Shown: positions 9,723 to 64,000 of the stretch, piece after piece
How positions within the stretch are numbered: position 1 is the first letter of the stretch
Layout of the letters: every line of letters starts with the position of its first letter
Origin: Alphaproteobacteria bacterium
GTDB lineage: Bacteria > Pseudomonadota > Alphaproteobacteria > Rs-D84
Length of the DNA: 64,000 nt
Direction: 5' to 3'
NCBI GenBank assembly: GCA_009783145.1
Contig: WRHR01000003.1
Location: 23,019-87,018, forward strand
Notes under the pieces: generated by a model
The model's database searches: none
Told to the model about the DNA's origin: nothing
What the model saw: only the letters and a program-made list of their open reading frames with translations
Translations under genes and position numbers: made by a program

Positions 9723-11160
9723 CGCAATTACTTCGTCCGTCCAATCTGCATTGCTTGATGTTTATGCGGCGTTCCAAGCGGCTCCAGAAAACATACTGGC
9801 ACACAAGATTCTGCGCCACCGAGTTATTATTGTAATAAGGCGCGCCGGGCAGCCCCGAAATAATATTTCTGCAGCCGACAGTCTCGCTGTCGTCATTCCC
9901 GGGATTCTTAAGTATCTCGAACGAGTCGTTGTCTATATTTTCGGATAAAACATCCGGCAGCACGGATACTCCGGCGGGGCGAACATCCAGGATTATCGCG
10001 CCGCTGCCGCCTGCCAACAGAGAGCTTGAAATCTGATCGCGAAGGGTCAGATAAGCGGCGGATACCGTCCGCGCTTCGATTCCGCTTTTCGTGGAATACA
10101 TCAGCTCGGTGCTGTCTATGAATACATCCTGCCCGCGCGAAGCGTTTATGAACCCTGAGATTTCAAGCTGTTCGGTATCAATGGAGACATTGCTTAAAAT
10201 GGCGTCGCCATGAATATCCCAGTCATAGGGGCCGACAAAGCTTGTACGCCCAGCCGCCATCGCAAGCGAATTTAACGAAGCTGATTCGGCCTCGACAGAG
10301 CCTATCAATCCATATCTGAACAAGGTATATGCGGAAAGGGACTTCGCGATCAAATCCCCGCGCGAAATATTCAGAGCTCCCGCGCTGTCGCGCGTTTGAA
10401 ATACGGCCTTGTTCGCGATCAAAAGCTCTATCTTGTTCTTGAATCTGCGGTCGTTGCTGGATCCCGTAATGGAAAGCGTGCCGAAGCTCGCGGTATCAAG
10501 CTCCGCATTTTTTGCGGAGAGCTGTGAAATGTTTTTCACATCATAGCCGCCCATATCAAGGTCCGTATGAAATCTGTTTCGCATAATATCCTTGGAGTTT
10601 CGCCGAATCAGCTCCGAAAAGTCATCATCGATCGGGATCAGGACATATATGGCGTCCAAATCAGGTCTTATGCCGAAGTCTTTCAGATTTTTCTCCCATC
10701 CGCCGATGCCATGTAGGATGCCATTGCGGGCGGCTTCGGCGGCGTCCGACCCGATGCGCGCCATCAGCTCGCGCCGTGCGCCTGCGGATAAATTACTGCC
10801 CTTTATTACAAGCAGCGCCAAAACGCCGTTCGCGTTTTTACCGGTCATCAAGGATATTTTCTGCCCCTGCGCGGTCTGTGGAATAAAGCCCAGCGGAAGG
10901 CCGAAGGGCTCTAAAAGATCGGAGAATTCGTCGCCGCCGGCGACACGGACGCCATACCGCAGGTCATCCTTGTTGTACCTGACGAACTCGCGGGCGGCGC
11001 GGGCGGCGCGGGCCACGTGCCTGCTTGATGCGGTCATAATCTGGTCGTTTCTGCGCTCGCTCAGCCGACCTGCCAAAAAGGGCATAAAGGCCATGACCAA
11101 GGCGATTGCCAGCAAAGCTTGCAGCAAAAAGTTTCCACGGGATTCGGTGTTCAAAAACAT
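9718..11160 (-). CDS. Large pseudopilin-like protein with class III-like signal, paralog 1
   Basis: ESRG|NFLLQALLAIALVMAFMPF has Gln at +5; shares LDMGGYDV and TELMYST motifs with paralog 2. Confidence 0.5.
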   Translation of the reverse strand: MFLNTESRGNFLLQALLAIALVMAFMPFLAGRLSERRNDQIMTASSRHVARAARAAREFVRYNKDDLRYGVRVAGGDEFSDLLEPFGLPLGFIPQTAQGQKISLMTGKNANGVLALLVIKGSNLSAGARRELMARIGSDAAEAARNGILHGIGGWEKNLKDFGIRPDLDAIYVLIPIDDDFSELIRRNSKDIMRNRFHTDLDMGGYDVKNISQLSAKNAELDTASFGTLSITGSSNDRRFKNKIELLIANKAVFQTRDSAGALNISRGDLIAKSLSAYTLFRYGLIGSVEAESASLNSLAMAAGRTSFVGPYDWDIHGDAILSNVSIDTEQLEISGFINASRGQDVFIDSTELMYSTKSGIEARTVSAAYLTLRDQISSSLLAGGSGAIILDVRPAGVSVLPDVLSENIDNDSFEILKNPGNDDSETVGCRNIISGLPGAPYYNNNSVAQNLVCQYVFWSRLERRINIKQCRLDGRSNCG

Positions 11161-34020: not shown

Positions 34021-36004
34021 CCAACAACAAATCATCTTCCATCTTGCGGATGGTGTCGCGGATGGCGGAGGCTTCTTCGAACTCCAAATTCTCGGCATGC
34101 CTGAACATCTTCCTGCGCAAGTCCGCGATTGTCTTCTCCAAGCTTGCCCTATCCATAACCCCGCCGGATTTAGTATAAACAAATTGTCGCTTCTTATCTG
34201 TTTTCTCAATCCGGTCGCCGACCTCATTGAATACTGATTTTATAATAGTCTTCGGCACAATGCCATGCTTTTCGTTATAGGCCATCTGTTTTTCACGGCG
34301 ACGCGAAGTCTCGTCCATTGCAGCGCGCATGCTGTCCGTTATTGTATCCGCGTACAGAATCACACGCCCATTGCTATTGCGCGCAGCGCGCCCGATTGTC
34401 TGTATCAAGCTGCGGGTGCTGCGCAAGAATCCTTCCTTGTCTGCGTCCATGATTGCAACCAGCTCGCACTCCGGAACATCCAACCCTTCGCGCAAAAGGT
34501 TGATTCCAACCAATACATCGAACTTTCCCATTCGCAACTCGCGCAATAACTCTATGCGCTCCAAAGTCTCAATATCGCTGTGCAAATACCGCGCGCGAAC
34601 GCCATGCTCGTTTAAATAATCCGTCAGCTGTTCGGACATTTTTTTGGTGAGAGTTGTTATAAGAACGCGGCCTTTGGTTTTCTTTATCTCGTGCAATAAA
34701 TCATCTACTTGGTTCTTTGTCGGGCGAACTTCGACGACAGGATCCAACAGTCCTGTCGGGCGGATTACCTGCTCGGCAACGATTCCGCCGGCTTGCGTTA
34801 GTTCCCATTCCGCGGGAGTTGCGGATACGAATATGGTCTGCGGGCGCATGGCGTCCCATTCCTCGAACCGCAGCGGGCGGTTGTCCGCGCACGAAGGCAA
34901 ACGAAAACCGTATTCATACAACGAGCGTTTTCTCGCGGCGTCTCCCTTGGACATAGCGCCGATTTGCGGCACGGAAACGTGAGATTCATCCACAAACAAA
35001 ATCGCGTCTTTGGGCAGGTACTCGAATAAAGTCGGAGGCGGCTGGCCGGGCGCGCGTCCCGACAAATACCGCGAATAGTTCTCTATCCCGCGGCAGATGC
35101 CCGTCGCCTCCATCATCTCTATGTCGTAATTGGTGCGCTCGCGCAGGCGCTGTTCCTCCACATACTTCATATTTTCATGAAAGTAATCCAAGCGCGGCTG
35201 CAGGTCTTTTCGTATCTCCCCTATCGCTTGCAAGACCGTCGGCTGAGGCGTTGCGTAATGGGTATTTGGATATACCGCGATATGGTCCAGCTTATGCAGC
35301 TTGGCGCCGGTTAGTGTATCGAACTCCCAGATTTCCTCTATCTCGTCGCCAAAGAACGAAATCTTCCATCCGCGGTCTTGGCTGTGCGACGGAAAAATGT
35401 CCAAGGTATCGCCGCGAACTCGAAAATCCCCGCGGTCAAAGCCCACTTCATTGCGCTTGTATTGAATATCAACCAAAGCGCGCATTACATCCTTGGCGCT
35501 TAATTTGTCGCCCGCGCCCAGCACCAGTTTCATCCCAGAATATTGCTCCGGAGAACCCATTCCGTAAATGCTGGATACGCTTGAGACCACAATAACATCG
35601 CGCTCTTCCAGCATCGCGCGCGTGGCGCTGTGCCGCATGCGGTCCAGCTGATCATTTACGGATGCATCCTTATCGATATAAGTATCCGTGACTGGCAAGT
35701 ATGCCTCTGGCTGATAGTAATCGTAATACGAAACGAAGTATTCCACATGATTGTGCGGGAAAAAGGACTTCATCTCGGTATAAAGCTGCGCGGCCAGAAT
35801 CTTGTTTGGCGCCATTATCAGTGCCGGCCGACCCATATTTGCAATCACATTCGCCATGGTAAAGGTCTTTCCCGTGCCGGTGGCCCCCAGCAATACCTGG
35901 GACCGGCGGCCTTCTTTCAGGCCAGCGGCCAATTCGGCAATGGCCGCCGGTTGGTCGCCTGATGGCTTGTAGCTGCTTTGAAGATTAAAATTTGTTTTTT
36001 TCAT
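34016..36004 (-). CDS. uvrB: Excinuclease ABC subunit B
   Basis: [11 protein letters not shown]alker A, helicase motifs, C-terminal UVR domain ([19 protein letters not shown]). Confidence 0.93.
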
Positions 36005-36066
36005 TTTAACTGAGAACTGAAAACTGAGAACTGAGAGCTTAGTTTTCAGCTTTCAGTTTTCAGTTG
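36005..36066. repeat. Family H (ctgaaaa)n palindrome, copy H1
   Basis: ttaactgagaactgaaaactgagaactgagagcttagttttcagctttcagttttcagtt; abuts the uvrB start codon. Confidence 0.8.
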
Positions 36067-41357: not shown

Positions 41358-41432
41358 GGCGGGTTAGCTCAGTGGTAGAGCAGAGGAATCATAATCCTTT
41401 GGTCGGGGGTCCGAATCCCTCACCCGCTACCA
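41358..41432 (+). tRNA. tRNA-Met (CAT)
   Basis: Cloverleaf: acceptor ggcgggt/acccgct, D-arm gctcagtggtagagc, anticodon loop aaTCATAat, T-arm ggtccgaatcc, encoded CCA. Could instead be the Ile2 lysidine tRNA. Confidence 0.8.
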
Positions 41433-41552
41433 CCCTTCGCGTCTGCGACGCTTCGGGTGGCTCACGCCACCAGAATAGCGAGCAGTGAACCGCGAAGGAG
41501 TGCCCACCGGAGCCTTGGCGAAGGCGGGCCAGCCAAACAAGATTTAATTATC

Positions 41553-41626
41553 GCCCCCTTAGTATAATGGTAGAACACGTCCTTGGTAAGGACGAGGCGC
41601 AAGTCCGATTCTTGCAGGGGGCACCA
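41553..41626 (+). tRNA. tRNA-Thr (GGT)
   Basis: Acceptor gccccct/agggggc, anticodon loop ttGGTaa, T-arm ggcgcaagtccgattc... with encoded CCA. Confidence 0.8.
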
Positions 41627-57133: not shown

Positions 57134-57202
57134 TTTAAACTGAGAGCTGAAAACTGAAAACTGAGAACCAGATTTCAGTTCTCAGTTTTCAGTTTTCAGT
57201 TT
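57134..57202. repeat. Family H element, copy H2
   Basis: aactgagagctgaaaactgaaaactgagaaccagatttcagttctcagttttcagttttcagtt; supplies the DUF374 gene stop codon and abuts the lpxK start. Confidence 0.8.
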
Positions 57203-57912: not shown

Positions 57913-58273
57913 AACAAACTCTGCTTTAAGGGAAATATAGCAATAAGCCCAAAGGAATTCAACAAAAACGAAATCCGCCCGCTCGCCGATTCGTTGCTGT
58001 GGATTTTCATAGTAATTTAGTGCGTGTAATGCCCGGTTTCCTGGGACTTTTTTAGTGTTTAGCGAATAACAAAAAATACCTTGACCGAAAAATATTTCTT
58101 CTGTATAAAACAAGATAAAGGGGACCGATTTATAAAAAAATCAATCCCCTGAAACTGGGCGGTGTAATGGTGCCCAAGTGTGAACACTTCCACCTTACAC
58201 TGCCCAAGAGTACTTTGTCAAATGCAAATTTGATGAAGGTGTTTAACACATCATATAACCAAAAGGATAAAAA

Positions 58274-58504
58274 ATGGTGAGATGTAAAAGAACGTGGGGA
58301 TTAGAAATCCACCACAAACGCATTGATGGCGGAAATGACTTGGGTAATGCCCAAGTTTTATGCCAAAAATGCCACGAAAACACAAGCTCTTATGGCAGCC
58401 CAGACCATAAAACTCCGCCTGCGTTTAGCGAAGAAACAAAAAAAGCTGCGCTGAAACGTGCGGAGCATCGGTGCGAATGCACAAAGGGAGCTTGTTGTTT
58501 ATAA
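58274..58504 (+). CDS. HNH endonuclease
   Basis: LEIHHKRIDGGNDLGNAQVLCQKCH, a short stand-alone HNH motif; begins the AT-rich island; terminator follows. Confidence 0.7.
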   Translation: MVRCKRTWGLEIHHKRIDGGNDLGNAQVLCQKCHENTSSYGSPDHKTPPAFSEETKKAALKRAEHRCECTKGACCL

Positions 58505-58505
58505 C

Positions 58506-58536
58506 AAATAACCGCCCAAATGGGCGGTTTTGTTTT
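58506..58536 (+). terminator. Rho-independent terminator after HNH gene
   Basis: aaataaccgcccaaatgggcggttttgtttt. Confidence 0.7.
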
Positions 58537-59062
58537 GAACTTGGTTGGGGCAGTTAGACAAGTTTCTAACTGACCAGTCTGATGAACTGATAGATTTCAT
58601 AAATCAGTATAATCACTTTATGGAACTGCTATCCATAGAAGAACCAGAACTATTTGCTCTATACGGCGGAAACATTGGTGTTGAAAAATAATTCATTACG
58701 ATTTAATCCGATATTCCGAATTCCATTAAATCCACATATTTGACCCACAGACCTTCAGGTTATGAGTCCGATTATCAACAGTTCAGCAACCGTTCTTAAA
58801 TCACTTATTGCTCTGCAAGTGTTAGTTTTCAACGGTCATTATCAACCATTAGTGGAATTGTTCTATAAACCATTCTGATAACCATTCTATCAAACCCTAT
58901 GTAAAAACAGATTGTAGTTTGTTGAACCATTCTTAAAAGTGTTTCAAAAGAGTTAATTAACTGGACTTTGTTATATGGTTCCGCCAGGGTTAAGGGGTTG
59001 ATGAAACGATTTATGAAAAAGGAGATTGCTATGAACTTTTATTATGCTGAAATGGTTCGCAT

Positions 59063-60037
59063 CTATTGACCTTCGGAACTAATCACCGTTTTCCATACAT
59101 CTCTTTCTTTCGGAGTCAGTAAAACACAGTCATAATGCAACCCTTTCGGAGCATAGTCATTTACGATATAAAGGTTATTGCTATTTCTCTTATGTGCAGT
59201 TGCAAGTTTGCTGGTTATAACATTAGATTTTGTCGTAAATTCAAACGAACTACCGTCCTCAAAATAGACTTTTTCATAATAAGGCAAATCCGAACAATTA
59301 GTTTTAAGATTTTTCTTTTCATTATAATTAAAGTGCTGGTATCCAAATTTATATACATTTAGTTTCCCCATCTTGATTTTTTTAGAGTCTTTATACCTAT
59401 AAGTTTTTTCATTACTATATGAACCAAATATATTTACTTCACAAGAATTTTTGGTGAATGAGACCAAATACTCAAACGGAAGTTTCTTTGCTATAACTGC
59501 TTCAAGTGCTTCACGAGACCAACCGCCCTTGTTTTTAACTTCCTGTATAAATCTATCAGTATCCCCCACCGCACAGAAAAATAGTTTCTGCTTGCCTTCT
59601 TCTTTATCAAAAAATGCCATTGAACTTTTCGCAATCTTCTCCATTTCCTTCTTTTTGCACAATTCTTCTATGGCATCCCTTTTCTTCGGAGAGTATGAAG
59701 CAAACTTCCGTTTGAAATTATCAACATCTATAAGCAGGTCTCGTGGGTCTGTTTCTACAAACCCAACATCCACATAATTAAAGTTTCTTTGGGAAGAACT
59801 AATATCCATTTTTCGTTGGAAGTCCCTTTTGGGTTCAAAACCTTGTGCGACACCGCAGGGTATATCCACACCCCAGTCTTTCATAGATTTTTTGGAAATC
59901 TTATCAACCTCGTCTGTAAATAGATTGATTCCTACCGGGATAAGAACCACCGCAGATACACCGCCAATAATTGCATATTTGACGACATTTAATAATCCCG
60001 ACCACAAGGTCTTTATAGAACCCAGCATTTGTTTCAT
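59063..60037 (-). CDS. Membrane-anchored hypothetical protein
   Basis: N-terminal TM (YAIIGGVSAVVLIPVGINLF); AT-rich; no family recognised. Confidence 0.4.
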   Translation of the reverse strand: MKQMLGSIKTLWSGLLNVVKYAIIGGVSAVVLIPVGINLFTDEVDKISKKSMKDWGVDIPCGVAQGFEPKRDFQRKMDISSSQRNFNYVDVGFVETDPRDLLIDVDNFKRKFASYSPKKRDAIEELCKKKEMEKIAKSSMAFFDKEEGKQKLFFCAVGDTDRFIQEVKNKGGWSREALEAVIAKKLPFEYLVSFTKNSCEVNIFGSYSNEKTYRYKDSKKIKMGKLNVYKFGYQHFNYNEKKNLKTNCSDLPYYEKVYFEDGSSFEFTTKSNVITSKLATAHKRNSNNLYIVNDYAPKGLHYDCVLLTPKERDVWKTVISSEGQ

Positions 60038-60061
60038 TTTGGTTTCCTTTGAATTCCGTTT

Positions 60062-60958
60062 TTAGAACATATTTTTCAGTCCATTAAAAACTTCAAGTTC
60101 TTGCTTATCGCTGACAAGTTTCCAGACTGTTGGTATATTTCTATGCCCATTGTCTTTAACCTGTTCTCGACTCATTCTGCAGGACTTATTCAATATGTCA
60201 TTTAATTGGTCAATAGACCACGGGTCTGTATATGCAGATTCCATTTCTACGATACATTCGCCCGTTTTTTGATTATAAATAGTCTGAACAAATGACCTTT
60301 TCTTGCCACGACCAAATGGACAAGTTGTATCCACTCTTCCATCGGCAGTTTTACCATTATATTCACAATCTCTCAAATTGGGTTGAACCATATTTCCAAA
60401 AGTGCATTGTGAATCTTCTATGTATCTGGTAGTAGTGGACTTTTTAGTTTTAATTAGCGAATAAACAGTTTTGTTGATTGTGCAAGAGTATTGTCCTGTT
60501 TCGTTAAAACTCACCTCCAAATATCGTGTTTCCGATTTGTCTTCAAATTTGTAAATTAAATTGAGGATTTCGGGGACTTTTTCGCAAACAATGTCTTTTC
60601 CTGAAGTTTTGTTTGTTGGCACCTTTTCTTCAAAATAAGTAGGTCTTGTGTGCTTTATTATCTGATAACAAACCTTTGCGGAGTTTTGCTCTTGTTTTGC
60701 ATTACCTTCAATTTGCGAGTTGTCGTTTTTTGCTTCTTCTATCTTCTTATGGCACTCCGAATCCGAAAGATATTTTGTTTTCTTCTTTTTCTTTATTTTG
60801 CAATATTTCTCTTTCAAATCTGGGTCAATTTGCAACTTTTCACTTATAGTCGTATCGGTTGTAGGTGTTGATGGGGCAAGTGACTTCTGGGATTTCTTCG
60901 GACTACCACCACAAGCGACAAGTGCCAGCAGTGCTATCAGGATTGTAAGTTTTTTCAT
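60062..60958 (-). CDS. Cys-rich lipoprotein, hypothetical
   Basis: MKKLTILIALLALVACGG lipobox, about 14 Cys, Lys-rich low-complexity region. Confidence 0.45.
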   Translation of the reverse strand: MKKLTILIALLALVACGGSPKKSQKSLAPSTPTTDTTISEKLQIDPDLKEKYCKIKKKKKTKYLSDSECHKKIEEAKNDNSQIEGNAKQEQNSAKVCYQIIKHTRPTYFEEKVPTNKTSGKDIVCEKVPEILNLIYKFEDKSETRYLEVSFNETGQYSCTINKTVYSLIKTKKSTTTRYIEDSQCTFGNMVQPNLRDCEYNGKTADGRVDTTCPFGRGKKRSFVQTIYNQKTGECIVEMESAYTDPWSIDQLNDILNKSCRMSREQVKDNGHRNIPTVWKLVSDKQELEVFNGLKNMF

Positions 60959-61415
60959 TTTTTATCCTTTTGGATTTTTGTGCAAAAACCACCCTTCCAA
61001 CAGAAAGGTGGTCCAGGTTTTCCAAATCATCAAATGAGTGATTCCGTTGCCTTCGGCAATGCCTTATAACAACGGTGCCTGGACCATAAGGAACAGGCGA
61101 TAACGGTGTGAAAAGCACCATTATGCAAAAAATCGGATAAACGATGCTTTCACACCGCATTTGACGGGTTTGGAAATCCCGGAACCAATTATCCCTAATT
61201 GATTCAACCTAAATCATACTTAAAAACCTTGGAAATATCAACCAGAAACCTTAAATAATTTTCAGTTTCAAAATACTTATTTTAGTCGGGACTTGTGGAA
61301 GTTTTTTTGTATAAAATCTACCTAGATTGGCATTTGTTGCAATTTTTAGATTGAATAATTTGTAAAGTTTATTGTAAGGTTAAATTATAAAGAACAAGAC
61401 AAAAAAGCAGAACGA

Positions 61416-62087
61416 ATGCGAGTAAAAGACGGTATTATTATTGCCAATGCAGCGGATAAAATAAAAGCAGAATTGATAGATTTTCTGCTTGATTGCCATG
61501 ACAATTTTGACCTCATTGCCAACGAGACCCCTTTTTTGCAAAGCGAGCGAATGGCGGATATGATTGCTATTCGCAATGGCATAACAATGGGGTTTGAGAT
61601 AAAAAGCAATACAGACGACTTGCGGACTCTTTCCCAGCAATTGAGTGATTATACAAGGGTGTTTAATGCGGTTTATCTGGTATTTTCTGCAAAGTTTGCT
61701 GGCAGTCCAGAAATTGAAAAATTGCCCAAGACTATCGGTCTTTTTACTGTTGATACCGACAATAATCTAAAATTTCGCCGCAAAGCGGCAACAAAGGTTA
61801 TACTGGATAAATCCGCGATGCTTTCCTTGTTATGGAGAAAGGATTTGGAGACTCTTGCTCCCAGCAAGAAGAAAGCGGACTTTGACGATTTACGAGATTA
61901 TGTGCTGAGAAACTGCCCAATAAAGACCATTCAAGAACAAATTATAAAATCACTGCAATCTCGCTATGGGAATGGATATAAGTTGATGATACACGAAAGG
62001 GGCGAGAAAACTACCATAGAAGACCTGTTTTACATTACAGGTCTAAAAAAGCACCAGATTGTCTTCGCAGATACAAGCATTGCATAG
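61416..62087 (+). CDS. PD-(D/E)xK nuclease-fold protein (sce7726/MmcB-like)
   Basis: ADMIAIRNGITMGFEIKS gives a D..x12..E-x-K arrangement; AT-rich island. Confidence 0.35.
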   Translation: MRVKDGIIIANAADKIKAELIDFLLDCHDNFDLIANETPFLQSERMADMIAIRNGITMGFEIKSNTDDLRTLSQQLSDYTRVFNAVYLVFSAKFAGSPEIEKLPKTIGLFTVDTDNNLKFRRKAATKVILDKSAMLSLLWRKDLETLAPSKKKADFDDLRDYVLRNCPIKTIQEQIIKSLQSRYGNGYKLMIHERGEKTTIEDLFYITGLKKHQIVFADTSIA

Positions 62088-63165
62088 TCATATATAGATT
62101 TGACCGCACAGCAATCCAATATGCTGGTGCTTTGCCTTCTGGGGCACCGTTTGCCTTTTCAGCAATTCGTCTGTCCCCCTCGGTTAAAAACTCAGTTATA
62201 GGTGCATATTCGGACGAACCAATAACCTGCTTTGCTAATCCTACATAATCCGAACTGGTATTTCGCCCATTCCCTCGTCTAAACCAGTATTTTATGGGTT
62301 GCTTTGTTCGTTGGTCTCTTTCAATATAATCTATCCTTGCATACCATCCGGCACCACCCATTTCATATCTTTTGGGATATATGGATGAGAAATCCCCGTG
62401 AAAGACTTTGCTTCCTAATTCGGTCTTTACACAATCAGAGACTTGATTTTCAGTAATATCAATACTGCCCGCAGTTTTGCTTATACTACTAACCGATGCA
62501 GGGAAACTTGAAGAAACAGGTATAAGTGCTTTTATATTTGAAATATCTATACCAGATAATCCGCTCTTAATTTCATTTTCCTTATAGTCCCGAACAAAGT
62601 CAAAATCAAGAATAACAAACAATTTGCCGTTGCCAATAATGTCAGTAATAAATTTGATAACCTGTGGCAAAGATGGTGCAAAAGCAGGCAATTTTACAGC
62701 AATGTAATCAAAATTAGCATTTAATACTTGTATTTGTGCTTGAACCTCTGTCATATGGGCAGCATTAAATTGAATGACAGGTATAACCTGCTTCTTGAAT
62801 TTATCGTTCTTTTGTAAGAAATCAGACCAAGATTGATACCCGTTTGACGGGTCTAATAATCCGCCACCTTTACTGCTAAGACCGTCATATTTCAATGAAG
62901 CATCGTCTGTTATATCCAGAATGAACCGCCTGTCGTCCATAAAATCTAATATTTTTTGGATTTTGTTGTATATATCGCCCTGTCTTCTTTTGCCCCGCAA
63001 ATTTTCGTCTTTACAATTTTTTGTATAGGTGTATCCCAACTCCCCTGTCATTTCAATTATAGGTAAAATGTTATCTTTGACTGTATCGTTCAGGGCATCA
63101 TAAGCATTCACCTCTGACGGGCGAGTTTTTAAGATTGGGAAATAGCAGTATCTTGGCATACTCAA
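62035..63165 (-). CDS. Hypothetical protein, partner of ImmA-like peptidase (possibly sce7725-like)
   Basis: 376-aa ORF, 4-nt overlap with the upstream ImmA/IrrE gene; convergent with and 3'-overlapping the PD-(D/E)xK gene. Confidence 0.35.
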   Translation of the reverse strand: MSMPRYCYFPILKTRPSEVNAYDALNDTVKDNILPIIEMTGELGYTYTKNCKDENLRGKRRQGDIYNKIQKILDFMDDRRFILDITDDASLKYDGLSSKGGGLLDPSNGYQSWSDFLQKNDKFKKQVIPVIQFNAAHMTEVQAQIQVLNANFDYIAVKLPAFAPSLPQVIKFITDIIGNGKLFVILDFDFVRDYKENEIKSGLSGIDISNIKALIPVSSSFPASVSSISKTAGSIDITENQVSDCVKTELGSKVFHGDFSSIYPKRYEMGGAGWYARIDYIERDQRTKQPIKYWFRRGNGRNTSSDYVGLAKQVIGSSEYAPITEFLTEGDRRIAEKANGAPEGKAPAYWIAVRSNLYMTMQCLYLRRQSGAFLDL

Positions 63166-63737
63166 TACTCCGATATTAGACCAAGTTTATAAGCACGATA
63201 GCGGACCGCCGGTGTGGATAAATTAAACTTGTCTGCCAGTTTCTTTACTGTATTCTCTCCCCTTTTAATACAATCGTTTACAATCGTTTCAGGCATCAAT
63301 AAGTTTGAAGCAAAATCATTTGCCTCCCGTTCATCTGGATTTGTATTCTCGTCCCTGAAAAATATCAGGTCGTGCTGAAATCTTCCATTTGCATATTTTT
63401 CGCGGTGTTTTACATAATGTCCTAATTCGTGAGCGATTGTAAATCTTTGTCGCTGTTCGCTTTCATATTGATTTATATAAATACACCACTGGTTATCTAT
63501 CTGTTCTAGAAAACCAGAAGCGGATTTACCCAAATCCTTTTTTATCAATTTAATACCAAATATCTTTTCAACAACACTGGCAATATCCAATGGGTCGGTT
63601 TTTATTTTGAGTTCTTTCGCTTTTGCCCAGATTTCAGAGACAGACATTGTTTGAGGTGTTTGTTTCTTTGCCACAGAACGGGAAGTGGCATTCCCGCCGG
63701 AGAGAAAGTTTTGCCAATTAGATAAGTCTGTTGCCAT
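63162..63737 (-). CDS. ImmA/IrrE-family metallo-endopeptidase
   Basis: HELGHYVKH HEXXH motif plus EREANDFASNLLMP downstream. Confidence 0.7.
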   Translation of the reverse strand: MATDLSNWQNFLSGGNATSRSVAKKQTPQTMSVSEIWAKAKELKIKTDPLDIASVVEKIFGIKLIKKDLGKSASGFLEQIDNQWCIYINQYESEQRQRFTIAHELGHYVKHREKYANGRFQHDLIFFRDENTNPDEREANDFASNLLMPETIVNDCIKRGENTVKKLADKFNLSTPAVRYRAYKLGLISEY

Positions 63738-63979
63738 TATCTCCCTCCTTTCTTTTTCGTGGTTGCTTTTTTCTTTGCTGCGGGTTTAGGTTTTATAGTC
63801 GCAGCAGCATCCTTCTGTATCTGCTCAATAATCTTATTTTTTGTTAGTTCATATTCTTGCGATATGAATCCACGGATTCGGGTTTCGTCTAATTCTTCTG
63901 CTACATAATCCGACAAGTTTGTTTTAAGATAATCCGCAACTTTCTTGTCAAAATATATGCCAAACCATTCGGATTGCAT
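63737..63979 (-). CDS. Small hypothetical protein with Lys/Ala/Pro-rich basic tail
   Basis: Start overlaps the ImmA stop (ATGA); C-terminal AAKKKATTKKKGGR tail. Confidence 0.3.
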   Translation of the reverse strand: MQSEWFGIYFDKKVADYLKTNLSDYVAEELDETRIRGFISQEYELTKNKIIEQIQKDAAATIKPKPAAKKKATTKKKGGR

Positions 63980-64000
63980 TTCTTCGTGAATGATTTTCCG

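Follow-up and report, generated by a model that had tools for sequence, protein, structure and literature searches.

The 64,000-nt stretch of the alphaproteobacterial contig WRHR01000003.1 analyzed here (hereafter, the window) ends within an AT-rich island that is probably a repeat-bounded element of about 11.5 kb, equipped with its own serine recombinase and with a payload of four genes that form an anti-phage cassette of the toxin-antitoxin or abortive-infection type. The cassette encodes, in this order, a two-transmembrane-helix (2TM) protein, a zinc metallopeptidase of the M78 (ImmA/IrrE) type, and a homolog of the beta protein of P4, followed by a convergent gene for a homolog of P4 cII that belongs to the sce7726 family (Table 1). 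All the data come from metagenome-derived assemblies. A preliminary description of the window, made without database searches, had compared the region with anti-phage or abortive-infection cassettes; this comparison is now supported by the identification of the Beta_protein, sce7726/cll, and M78 families and by the restriction-modification and mobile-DNA neighborhoods in which the cassette is found.

Conservation and genomic context of the four-gene unit

A search of 185,579 reference genomes with patterns from a beta alignment yielded 23 related loci, against which every island protein was then run by tblastn. The loci represent Alphaproteobacteria, Margulisiibacteriota, Opitutales, Melainabacteria/Gastranaerophilales, Elusimicrobia/Endomicrobia, Bdellovibrionota, Muribaculaceae, and Parvimonas, and almost all of them come from metagenome-assembled genomes of gut or rumen bacteria. 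In each of the 20 loci with a full-length beta gene and upstream DNA, the M78 gene immediately precedes beta; the remaining three are a truncated contig, a decayed locus without the peptidase (L030), and a frameshifted locus (L020). The cII gene is convergent with and downstream of beta in each of the 23 loci, and the 3' ends of the two genes overlap by 15-68 nt in 20 of 22. Homologs of the 2TM protein were detected by tblastn in 16 genome loci and 2 viral loci, and a protein of 185-270 aa with 2-3 predicted transmembrane helices is encoded upstream of the peptidase in every intact locus, even where the sequence similarity has faded. All four cassette genes are also present on two viral contigs from IMG/VR, one of them 45 kb long.

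None of nine other island proteins (HNH, the 324-, 298-, 125-, 287-, 189-, and 640-aa proteins, the 233-aa ATPase, and the recombinase) had a match in the 23 loci. The 2TM, M78, and beta genes with the convergent cII gene form an autonomous unit that is present in at least six phyla, at 20 reference-genome loci and on two viral contigs. No housekeeping family was assigned to the island genes, and the cassette is not syntenic across the many phyla in which it occurs; housekeeping assignments and conserved synteny were the observations that the preliminary description had named as speaking against an accessory island.

The neighborhoods of the cassette differ among its carriers. In the closest relative (67% identity), it is found beside two DNA methyltransferase genes accompanied by a faint PD-(D/E)xK gene, with a tyrosine integrase gene and an HTH_17 gene nearby. 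In another lineage, it is flanked by lambda-like prophage tail genes on one side and by a type I restriction-modification system on the other. No beta homolog was found on plasmids, and the beta family is small, with 1,072 representatives at E<=1e-3 among 1.84 billion.

Two loci contain remnants of the cassette. The copy on a Melainabacteria chromosome (L020, 5752-6990) has a truncated 2TM gene and a frameshift that divides the peptidase gene. In L030 (6789-7881), from a Bdellovibrionota genome, the peptidase gene is gone, and beta is both truncated and frameshifted.

Proteins of the cassette

The 376-aa protein, which had been left without an assignment in the preliminary description, is a homolog of P4 beta (26% identity over 95% of the length, E=1e-27, BLASTP). 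Searches against the PADLOC defense profiles, which had been suggested there as a check, returned beta (E=5e-47) and cll as matches of the 376-aa and 223-aa proteins, respectively; the match of beta to the PD-Lambda-2_C profile is far weaker (E=1.4e-11) than that to the P4-type beta model. The AlphaFold2 (AF2) model of beta has a predicted local distance difference test score (pLDDT) of 89.4 and a predicted template modeling score (pTM) of 0.89 and consists of alternating beta-strands and alpha-helices in a TIM-barrel-like arrangement. Residues K13/T14, E38/T40, D84/T86, D187, S219/S220, D258, R277/D279, R297, and R354/N356 are invariant and map largely to the C-terminal ends of the predicted strands. 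In TIM-barrel enzymes, the active sites are located at the C-terminal ends of the strands. Because the invariant polar residues of beta occupy this position in the model, we infer that beta is an enzyme or a ligand-binding protein and not merely a stoichiometric antitoxin.

The 223-aa protein is a homolog of P4 cII (27% identity, E=1e-10). Membership in the sce7726 family, one of two families proposed for the island proteins in the preliminary description, is borne out by a bit score well above the cut-off (Table 1), whereas the sce7725 partner was not recovered: beta has no NCBIfam match at E<=0.1, the 2TM protein was matched by no NCBIfam family, and nothing similar to sce7725 matched the peptidase. 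The AF2 model (pLDDT 81.5) comprises an alpha-beta-beta-beta-alpha-beta core and a helical C-terminal domain, and its Foldseek matches are restriction-endonuclease-like proteins, with SPO1766 at the top (E=1e-5), followed by AF1548, SfsA, XisH, Bax1, and Hjc. Residues E37, D48, E61-x-K63, and Q75 are invariant. The fold matches and the invariant E-D-ExK motif confirm the PD-(D/E)xK call made for this protein in the preliminary description; the catalytic residues of the nuclease fold are intact in cII. The beta and cII genes indeed form the convergent pair with overlapping 3' ends that had been described, the overlap being 53 nt.

The peptidase, already described as an ImmA/IrrE HEXXH protein, is a stand-alone M78 protein. 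It contains only the M78 domain (Pfam match over residues 59-182), and no helix-turn-helix (HTH) domain scores above noise. The best matches among the PADLOC profiles are capP (E=2e-32) and RmrA (E=6e-19); the match to PD-Lambda-2_B (E=2e-6) is confined to positions 292-367 of 402. The HExxH motif and an E..AN..A..LLMP block are invariant in 19 orthologs, and the N-terminus resembling 'MATDLSN' is preserved across phyla. The active site is intact.

The first gene of the cassette extends beyond the end of the window. What had been described as a small basic protein is 80 aa from the C-terminal region of a protein of 210-227 aa, which has two transmembrane helices and a charged, basic-tailed C-terminus and the gene of which runs past base 64000. 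No toxin family of Pfam matched this protein. The translational coupling noted within the operon was confirmed: the 2TM and peptidase genes meet at TAATG, and beta starts either at a TTG within a TTGA overlap with the peptidase gene or at an ATG 2 nt past the peptidase stop codon.

Relationship to known defense systems

The gop-beta-cII genes of P4 confer protection from lambda and P1, and Gop is toxic when beta is missing (PMC9122126); the P4 system is triggered to kill the cell by orf184, an accessory protein of a phage (bioRxiv 10.1101/2023.04.06.535777). In PD-lambda-2, an HTH-M78 protein is toxic alone and is neutralized by a HigB-like protein, and a beta-like protein is needed for defense (PMC9519451). 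No mechanistic study of Gop-beta-cII or PD-lambda-2 was found in the searchable literature.

The cassette shares with Gop-beta-cII full-length homologs of beta and cII (26-27% identity), the arrangement in which an upstream membrane protein gene and beta are co-directional and cII is convergent, and the location on mobile DNA. In P4, gop (133 aa) precedes beta, and cII, labeled 'sce7726 family' in RefSeq, is convergent; by sequence inspection, P4 Gop has two N-terminal hydrophobic segments that resemble transmembrane helices. Unlike P4, the cassette encodes no Gop homolog: P4 Gop itself matches the PADLOC gop model with E=5e-70, and the 2TM protein does not match it. Homology to Gop was also considered and rejected for the peptidase, neither protein showing similarity to P4 Gop. 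Further differences from P4 are the M78 gene inserted between the membrane protein gene and beta, the 15-68-nt overlap of the 3' ends of beta and cII in place of a 27-nt gap with a terminator, and the hosts, which are gut and rumen bacteria of many phyla as opposed to Enterobacteria.

PD-lambda-2 resembles the cassette in that an M78 gene is directly followed by a beta-like gene and in its toxin-antitoxin-like abortive-infection logic. The two differ, however, in the first gene, which encodes a HigB-like protein in PD-lambda-2 and a 2TM protein here, and in the peptidase, which carries a fused Xre HTH domain in PD-lambda-2 and stands alone in the cassette. CapP, which functions with CapH in the cyclic-oligonucleotide-based anti-phage signaling system (CBASS), and RmrA of RosmerTA are stand-alone or fused M78 regulators of defense systems and are the best PADLOC matches of the cassette peptidase, the active site of which is intact, but the cassette contains neither a CapH-type or Xre-type HTH partner or domain nor CBASS genes, and has no match to RmrT. 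Because an HTH partner is missing, the cassette is not a CapH/CapP, ImmR/ImmA, or RosmerTA pair. In terms of components, it includes two of the three of Gop-beta-cII, along with the shared layout and without Gop, and one of the three of PD-lambda-2. The cassette is best classified as a variant of Gop-beta-cII that contains a peptidase and is related to PD-lambda-2; it is a full member of neither.

The temperate Pasteurella phage Pmp11 (L036, 3023-5315; OR544128.1, 10534-12826) carries, beside its CI repressor gene, a P4-like trio that is not annotated as such, all three products being labeled 'hypothetical'. A gene for a 131-aa protein precedes a beta-like gene, and a cII-like gene is convergent, with the 3' ends of the latter two exactly abutting. 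The beta and cII proteins of Pmp11 were matched by sequence, whereas the 131-aa protein has no match to P4 Gop.

Boundaries of the element

The island is bounded by a perfect inverted repeat of 508 nt, the left copy of which occupies window positions 58541-59048. Contig L008, from the Joint Genome Institute, runs from the far end of the island core through the serine recombinase gene into 508 nt of repeat, and its positions 1462-1969 are the exact reverse complement of the left copy (100% identity). Metagenome contig L002 (10.8 kb), which is identical to the window where the two overlap, carries the island past base 64000, in agreement with the preliminary description, according to which the island was cut by the window end. 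L002 has perfect terminal inverted repeats of 141 nt (the right one at 10664-10804), a length equal to the MEGAHIT k-mer size.

The inner edge of the repeat was placed at 59048, where a 73-kb chromosomal contig from another sample ends exactly, and the outer edge at 58541, where L008 ends; a k=31 contig that approaches from the chromosomal side ends at 58570, that is, 58541 + 29. The assembly graphs of several samples branch exactly at 59048 and at 58541. Independent samples and assemblers (the window; L002, in two samples; L008; L009) reproduce the two inner junctions with 100% identity. With these edges, the element measures 508 + 10,522 + 508 = 11,538 nt, at a GC content of 35-36% compared to 49.5% in the host. 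This AT-rich island is foreign, horizontally acquired DNA of about 11.5 kb, and window positions 58541-64000 are its left 5.5 kb.

Contigs assembled from short reads cannot link the outer flanks across the 508-nt repeat. The right chromosomal flank was not recovered: an exact repeat word had 0 matches in reference-genome contigs, a word from the outer part of the repeat had 0 matches in viral contigs, and a metagenome scan with the repeat returned only two contigs, none of which extends past it. Look-ups with HNH, LpxK, DUF374, the 48-aa open reading frame (ORF), and the lipoprotein yielded no further flank context.

The preliminary description had presented the left copy as a 500-bp non-coding stretch with iteron-like features. 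There is indeed no long ORF at 58541-59048, but the stretch is a copy of the inverted repeat and includes a 48-aa ORF. An origin or iteron function was dropped as an explanation, given that L008 contains the same 508 nt in inverted orientation at the far end of the core; the stretch is a recombinase-associated inverted repeat. The 48-aa ORF has an in-frame stop codon just outside the left copy; in the right-hand copy, it may form the 3' part of a longer gene. The word AACCRTTCT has 6 matches in 64 kb against 1.02 expected, a number reached in 0 of 100 shuffles, and 4 of these are concentrated in a 146-nt section of the repeat, upstream of the recombinase promoter region; degenerate inverted copies are at 58854 and 59049. 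These words are candidate protein-binding sites.

Serine recombinase and other genes of the element

At the right end of the core, a small serine recombinase with a C-terminal HTH domain is encoded, the domain organization of the serine-invertase class. The recombinase matches Gin (2e-19) and gamma-delta resolvase (1e-17) in the PDB and is equally near to Gin, Sin/Bin3, and the gamma-delta/Tn3 resolvases. Its promoter region, Shine-Dalgarno sequence, and first six codons are contained in the 508-nt repeat, and the PDB alignments place the canonical N-terminus at the methionine of MNFYYA. In the left copy, the duplicated start runs into a dead-end frame of 11 codons opposite the 3' end of the 324-aa gene. 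No crossover site of the hix/gix type, other Hin/Gin-type site, or res-type site was recognized at the repeat edges, where only a weak GAAC-N18-GTTC dyad at the inner junction was found; no transposase was recognized in the element.

The C segment of phage P1, inverted by Cin, is a serine-invertase segment with long inverted repeats. The element shares with the P1 C segment and with resolvase transposons a small serine recombinase and, around a multi-kilobase segment, inverted repeats of about 0.5 kb. It differs from the P1 segment in that its repeat holds the promoter and the first six codons of the recombinase itself, and in that the 10.5-kb segment contains defense and orphan genes in place of tail-fiber alternatives.

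The membrane protein and lipoprotein gene pair of the preliminary description is present, encoding a 324-aa protein with a transmembrane anchor and a 298-aa Cys-rich lipoprotein. Because neither protein has a match in any related locus, both are island cargo outside the conserved cassette. The remaining genes of the core encode a HEAT-like protein of 125 aa and, in one operon, proteins of 287, 153/189, 640, and 233 aa. For the 640-aa protein, no homolog was found in a word-indexed search of 5.8 billion clustered proteins, and the PDB sequence matches were at the noise level. The P-loop ATPase of 233 aa has weak matches of the FtsK/TrwB/HerA type, a match to PADLOC mad8 (E=1e-7), and weak PDB sequence matches. 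This operon could be a second defense system or the element's own machinery.

A faint A32/FtsK-type match of the 233-aa P-loop protein raised the idea of a virus-like island, polinton-like or PM2-like. It was ruled out because no capsid or other virion gene was recognized and the PHROG scan was blank for those genes.

Composition of the region and flanking features

In 1-kb windows, the GC content is 0.45-0.55 over most of positions 2001-58000 and 0.354-0.385 over 58001-64000, so that the sharp shift in composition reported after the DUF374 gene is real. By segment, it is 0.348 in the 508-nt repeat, 0.364 in the core, 0.455 in the HNH gene, and 0.495 in the remainder of the window. The stand-alone HNH gene and its terminator are present as described, with the Pfam match of the gene product below the curated cut-off, but they do not mark the start of the island, which had been set at 58120. 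The HNH gene lies outside the repeat and is closer to the host in composition; therefore, the sharply AT-rich element begins at about 58541. No tRNA gene was found at the island edge, the closest in the window being at 41358-41626, and an Rfam search detected nothing within the element.

Several features outside the element were also recorded. A second AT-rich stretch occupies window positions 1-2000 (GC 0.40-0.42, compared to a background of about 0.50). On the minus strand, a hairpin that resembles a terminator, with a stem of 13 pairs, is located at 58119-58150, in the interval that separates the HNH gene from the start of DUF374; no minus-strand gene ends at it now, and it may be an insulator of the DUF374-lpxK operon or a relic of a former gene. 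A palindromic hairpin composed of runs of the CTGAAAA/TTTTCAG heptamer occurs twice in the window (57137-57202 and 36002-36065, about 86% identity), one copy being located between lpxK and the DUF374 gene, and looks like a dispersed element of the repetitive extragenic palindrome (REP) type or a terminator.

Table 1. Features of the island and its left border. Positions are those of the window unless contig L002 is named.
Feature	Position	Strand	Description
HNH-like gene, 76 aa, stand-alone	58274-58504	+	Pfam HNH, E=0.0016; PHROG 333 HNH endonuclease, E=5e-7
Bidirectional intrinsic terminator hairpin	58510-58529	both	3' of HNH gene; ends 12 nt short of the outer repeat edge
508-nt perfect inverted repeat, left copy	58541-59048		bounds the island core
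ORF, 48 aa	58545-58691	+	outer end of the repeat; no Pfam family
Four AACCRTTCT words, same strand	58788-58933	+	upstream of recombinase promoter region
Duplicate of serine recombinase start	59031-59048	+	ATG + 5 codons (MNFYYA); AAGGAG Shine-Dalgarno upstream
324-aa protein	59063-60037	-	N-terminal transmembrane anchor, 6 Cys; no family match
298-aa lipoprotein	60062-60958	-	lipobox LVAC, 11 Cys in total; no family match
cII / sce7726-family protein, 223 aa	61416-62087	+	NCBIfam sce7726_fam, 96.3 bits (cut-off 70); PADLOC cll, E=7e-25
beta homolog, 376 aa (TTG start) or 374 aa (ATG at 63159)	62035-63165	-	Pfam Beta_protein PF14350, E=6e-31
M78 (ImmA/IrrE-type) zinc metallopeptidase, 191 aa	63162-63737	-	Pfam Peptidase_M78, E=8e-26
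2TM protein, 3' part of gene	63737-64000	-	full gene L002 4830-5462/5513, to window-equivalent 64369 or 64420
Four-protein operon (287, 153/189, 640, 233 aa)	L002 5970-10118 (window-equivalent ~64877-69025)	+	no family assigned
Small serine recombinase	L002 10124-10681	-	Resolvase, E=3e-34; HTH_7, E=6e-8; PHROG DNA invertase, E=4e-55

Proposed function and alternative explanations

By analogy with P4 and PD-lambda-2, the 2TM protein would be a membrane-acting effector that takes the place of Gop. In uninfected cells, beta and the peptidase would keep it inactive; a phage cue would disturb this control, possibly through cleavage by the peptidase of the cytoplasmic tail of the effector or of beta, and the released effector would then damage the membrane, so that the infection is aborted. 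The cII nuclease might be a second effector or a DNA-sensing or regulatory arm, and expression of beta and cII may be coupled through their conserved antisense overlap. The roles of effector and restraint are proposed because P4 Gop is toxic without beta and the peptidase fusion of PD-lambda-2 is toxic.

A number of observations weigh against this interpretation of the element and its cassette. The 2TM protein has no detectable similarity to P4 Gop or to any PADLOC model, and the effector role suggested for it derives from its position and topology, just as the defense role of the four-gene form is taken from homology and context. An HTH repressor, the usual substrate of M78 peptidases, is encoded neither in the cassette nor upstream of the peptidase in the loci examined. 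The Foldseek matches of beta are weak and are generic TIM barrels (E>=6e-4, TM-score <=0.54, 7-14% identity) and, accordingly, assign no chemistry to this protein, which has no close solved relative. The presence of the M78 gene upstream of beta in 20 of 20 loci was obtained with search patterns that come from this clade and says nothing about the frequency of Gop-type loci elsewhere. The decay of the cassette in L020 and L030 indicates that it is dispensable. Finally, one 73-kb MEGAHIT contig crosses the outer repeat edge at 58541 unbroken, which a simple two-copy model does not predict.

A different function would be that of an addiction module, which stabilizes mobile elements mainly through post-segregational killing and has only an incidental effect on phages. 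P4 gop and beta act as a toxin-antidote pair (PMC9122126, citing Ghisotti 1990), and the cassette resides on mobile DNA both here and in its relatives. Still, we consider this explanation unlikely: the two relatives for which experiments are available confer protection from phages (PMC9122126, PMC9519451), the restriction-modification-type neighbors are typical of defense islands, and four conserved components, a nuclease and a peptidase among them, exceed the needs of stabilization. It is very improbable that the peptidase is instead an ImmA-like anti-repressor protease that steers induction, excision, or inversion of the island, comparable to ImmA/ImmR of ICEBs1, with beta and cII involved in maintenance of the element. 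Such a role, which comes close to the regulatory module of an integrative and conjugative element or prophage that was the other suggestion of the preliminary description, would fit the M78 family membership, the lysogeny phenotype from which P4 cII was named, and the combination of a recombinase with long inverted repeats on the same element. However, there is no adjacent HTH repressor gene in any locus examined, so this suggestion is not favored; moreover, the cassette never occurs together with this recombinase or other island genes in the related loci, and it is found in unrelated types of elements, namely, an integrase-bearing island, a prophage tail region, and viral contigs.

That the inverted repeat and the island are assembly artifacts, and the genes ordinary strain-specific chromosomal ones, is hardly credible. 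The metagenomic origin of all the data, the coincidence of the 141-nt terminal repeat of L002 with the k of the assembler, and the MEGAHIT contig that runs unbroken through the outer repeat edge could be taken in this sense. Yet the two inner junctions are 100% identical in independent samples and assemblers, L008 covers the full 508 nt beside the recombinase, two assemblies put the outer edge at the same base, 58541, and the shift in composition does not depend on the assembly. An abortive-infection or toxin-antitoxin cassette on a repeat-bounded element thus remains the interpretation that we prefer. More tentatively, the four-gene unit might be an unnamed, widespread abortive-infection system, in which the stand-alone M78 peptidase gates a membrane effector under the control of beta as a TIM-barrel enzyme, and its carrier an undescribed self-inverting or self-mobilizing element. 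Within this broader and rather doubtful scheme, P4 Gop-beta-cII and PD-lambda-2 would be reduced or rearranged offshoots of one larger family.

Significance

Gop-beta-cII and PD-lambda-2 are experimentally validated defense systems, and the locus described here ties the beta component that they have in common to a conserved four-gene unit, which joins the cII of Gop-beta-cII with the M78 peptidase of PD-lambda-2. Beta itself, with its predicted TIM-barrel-like fold and conserved enzyme-like residues, does not look like a simple antitoxin. The form without Gop is probably missed by rule sets that demand gop, beta, and cll together. The repeat-bounded carrier poses a separate puzzle, that of how defense genes move. 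Because it is found in at least six phyla of bacteria from gut and rumen and also on viral contigs, the four-gene unit may matter for the dynamics between phages and their hosts in these habitats.

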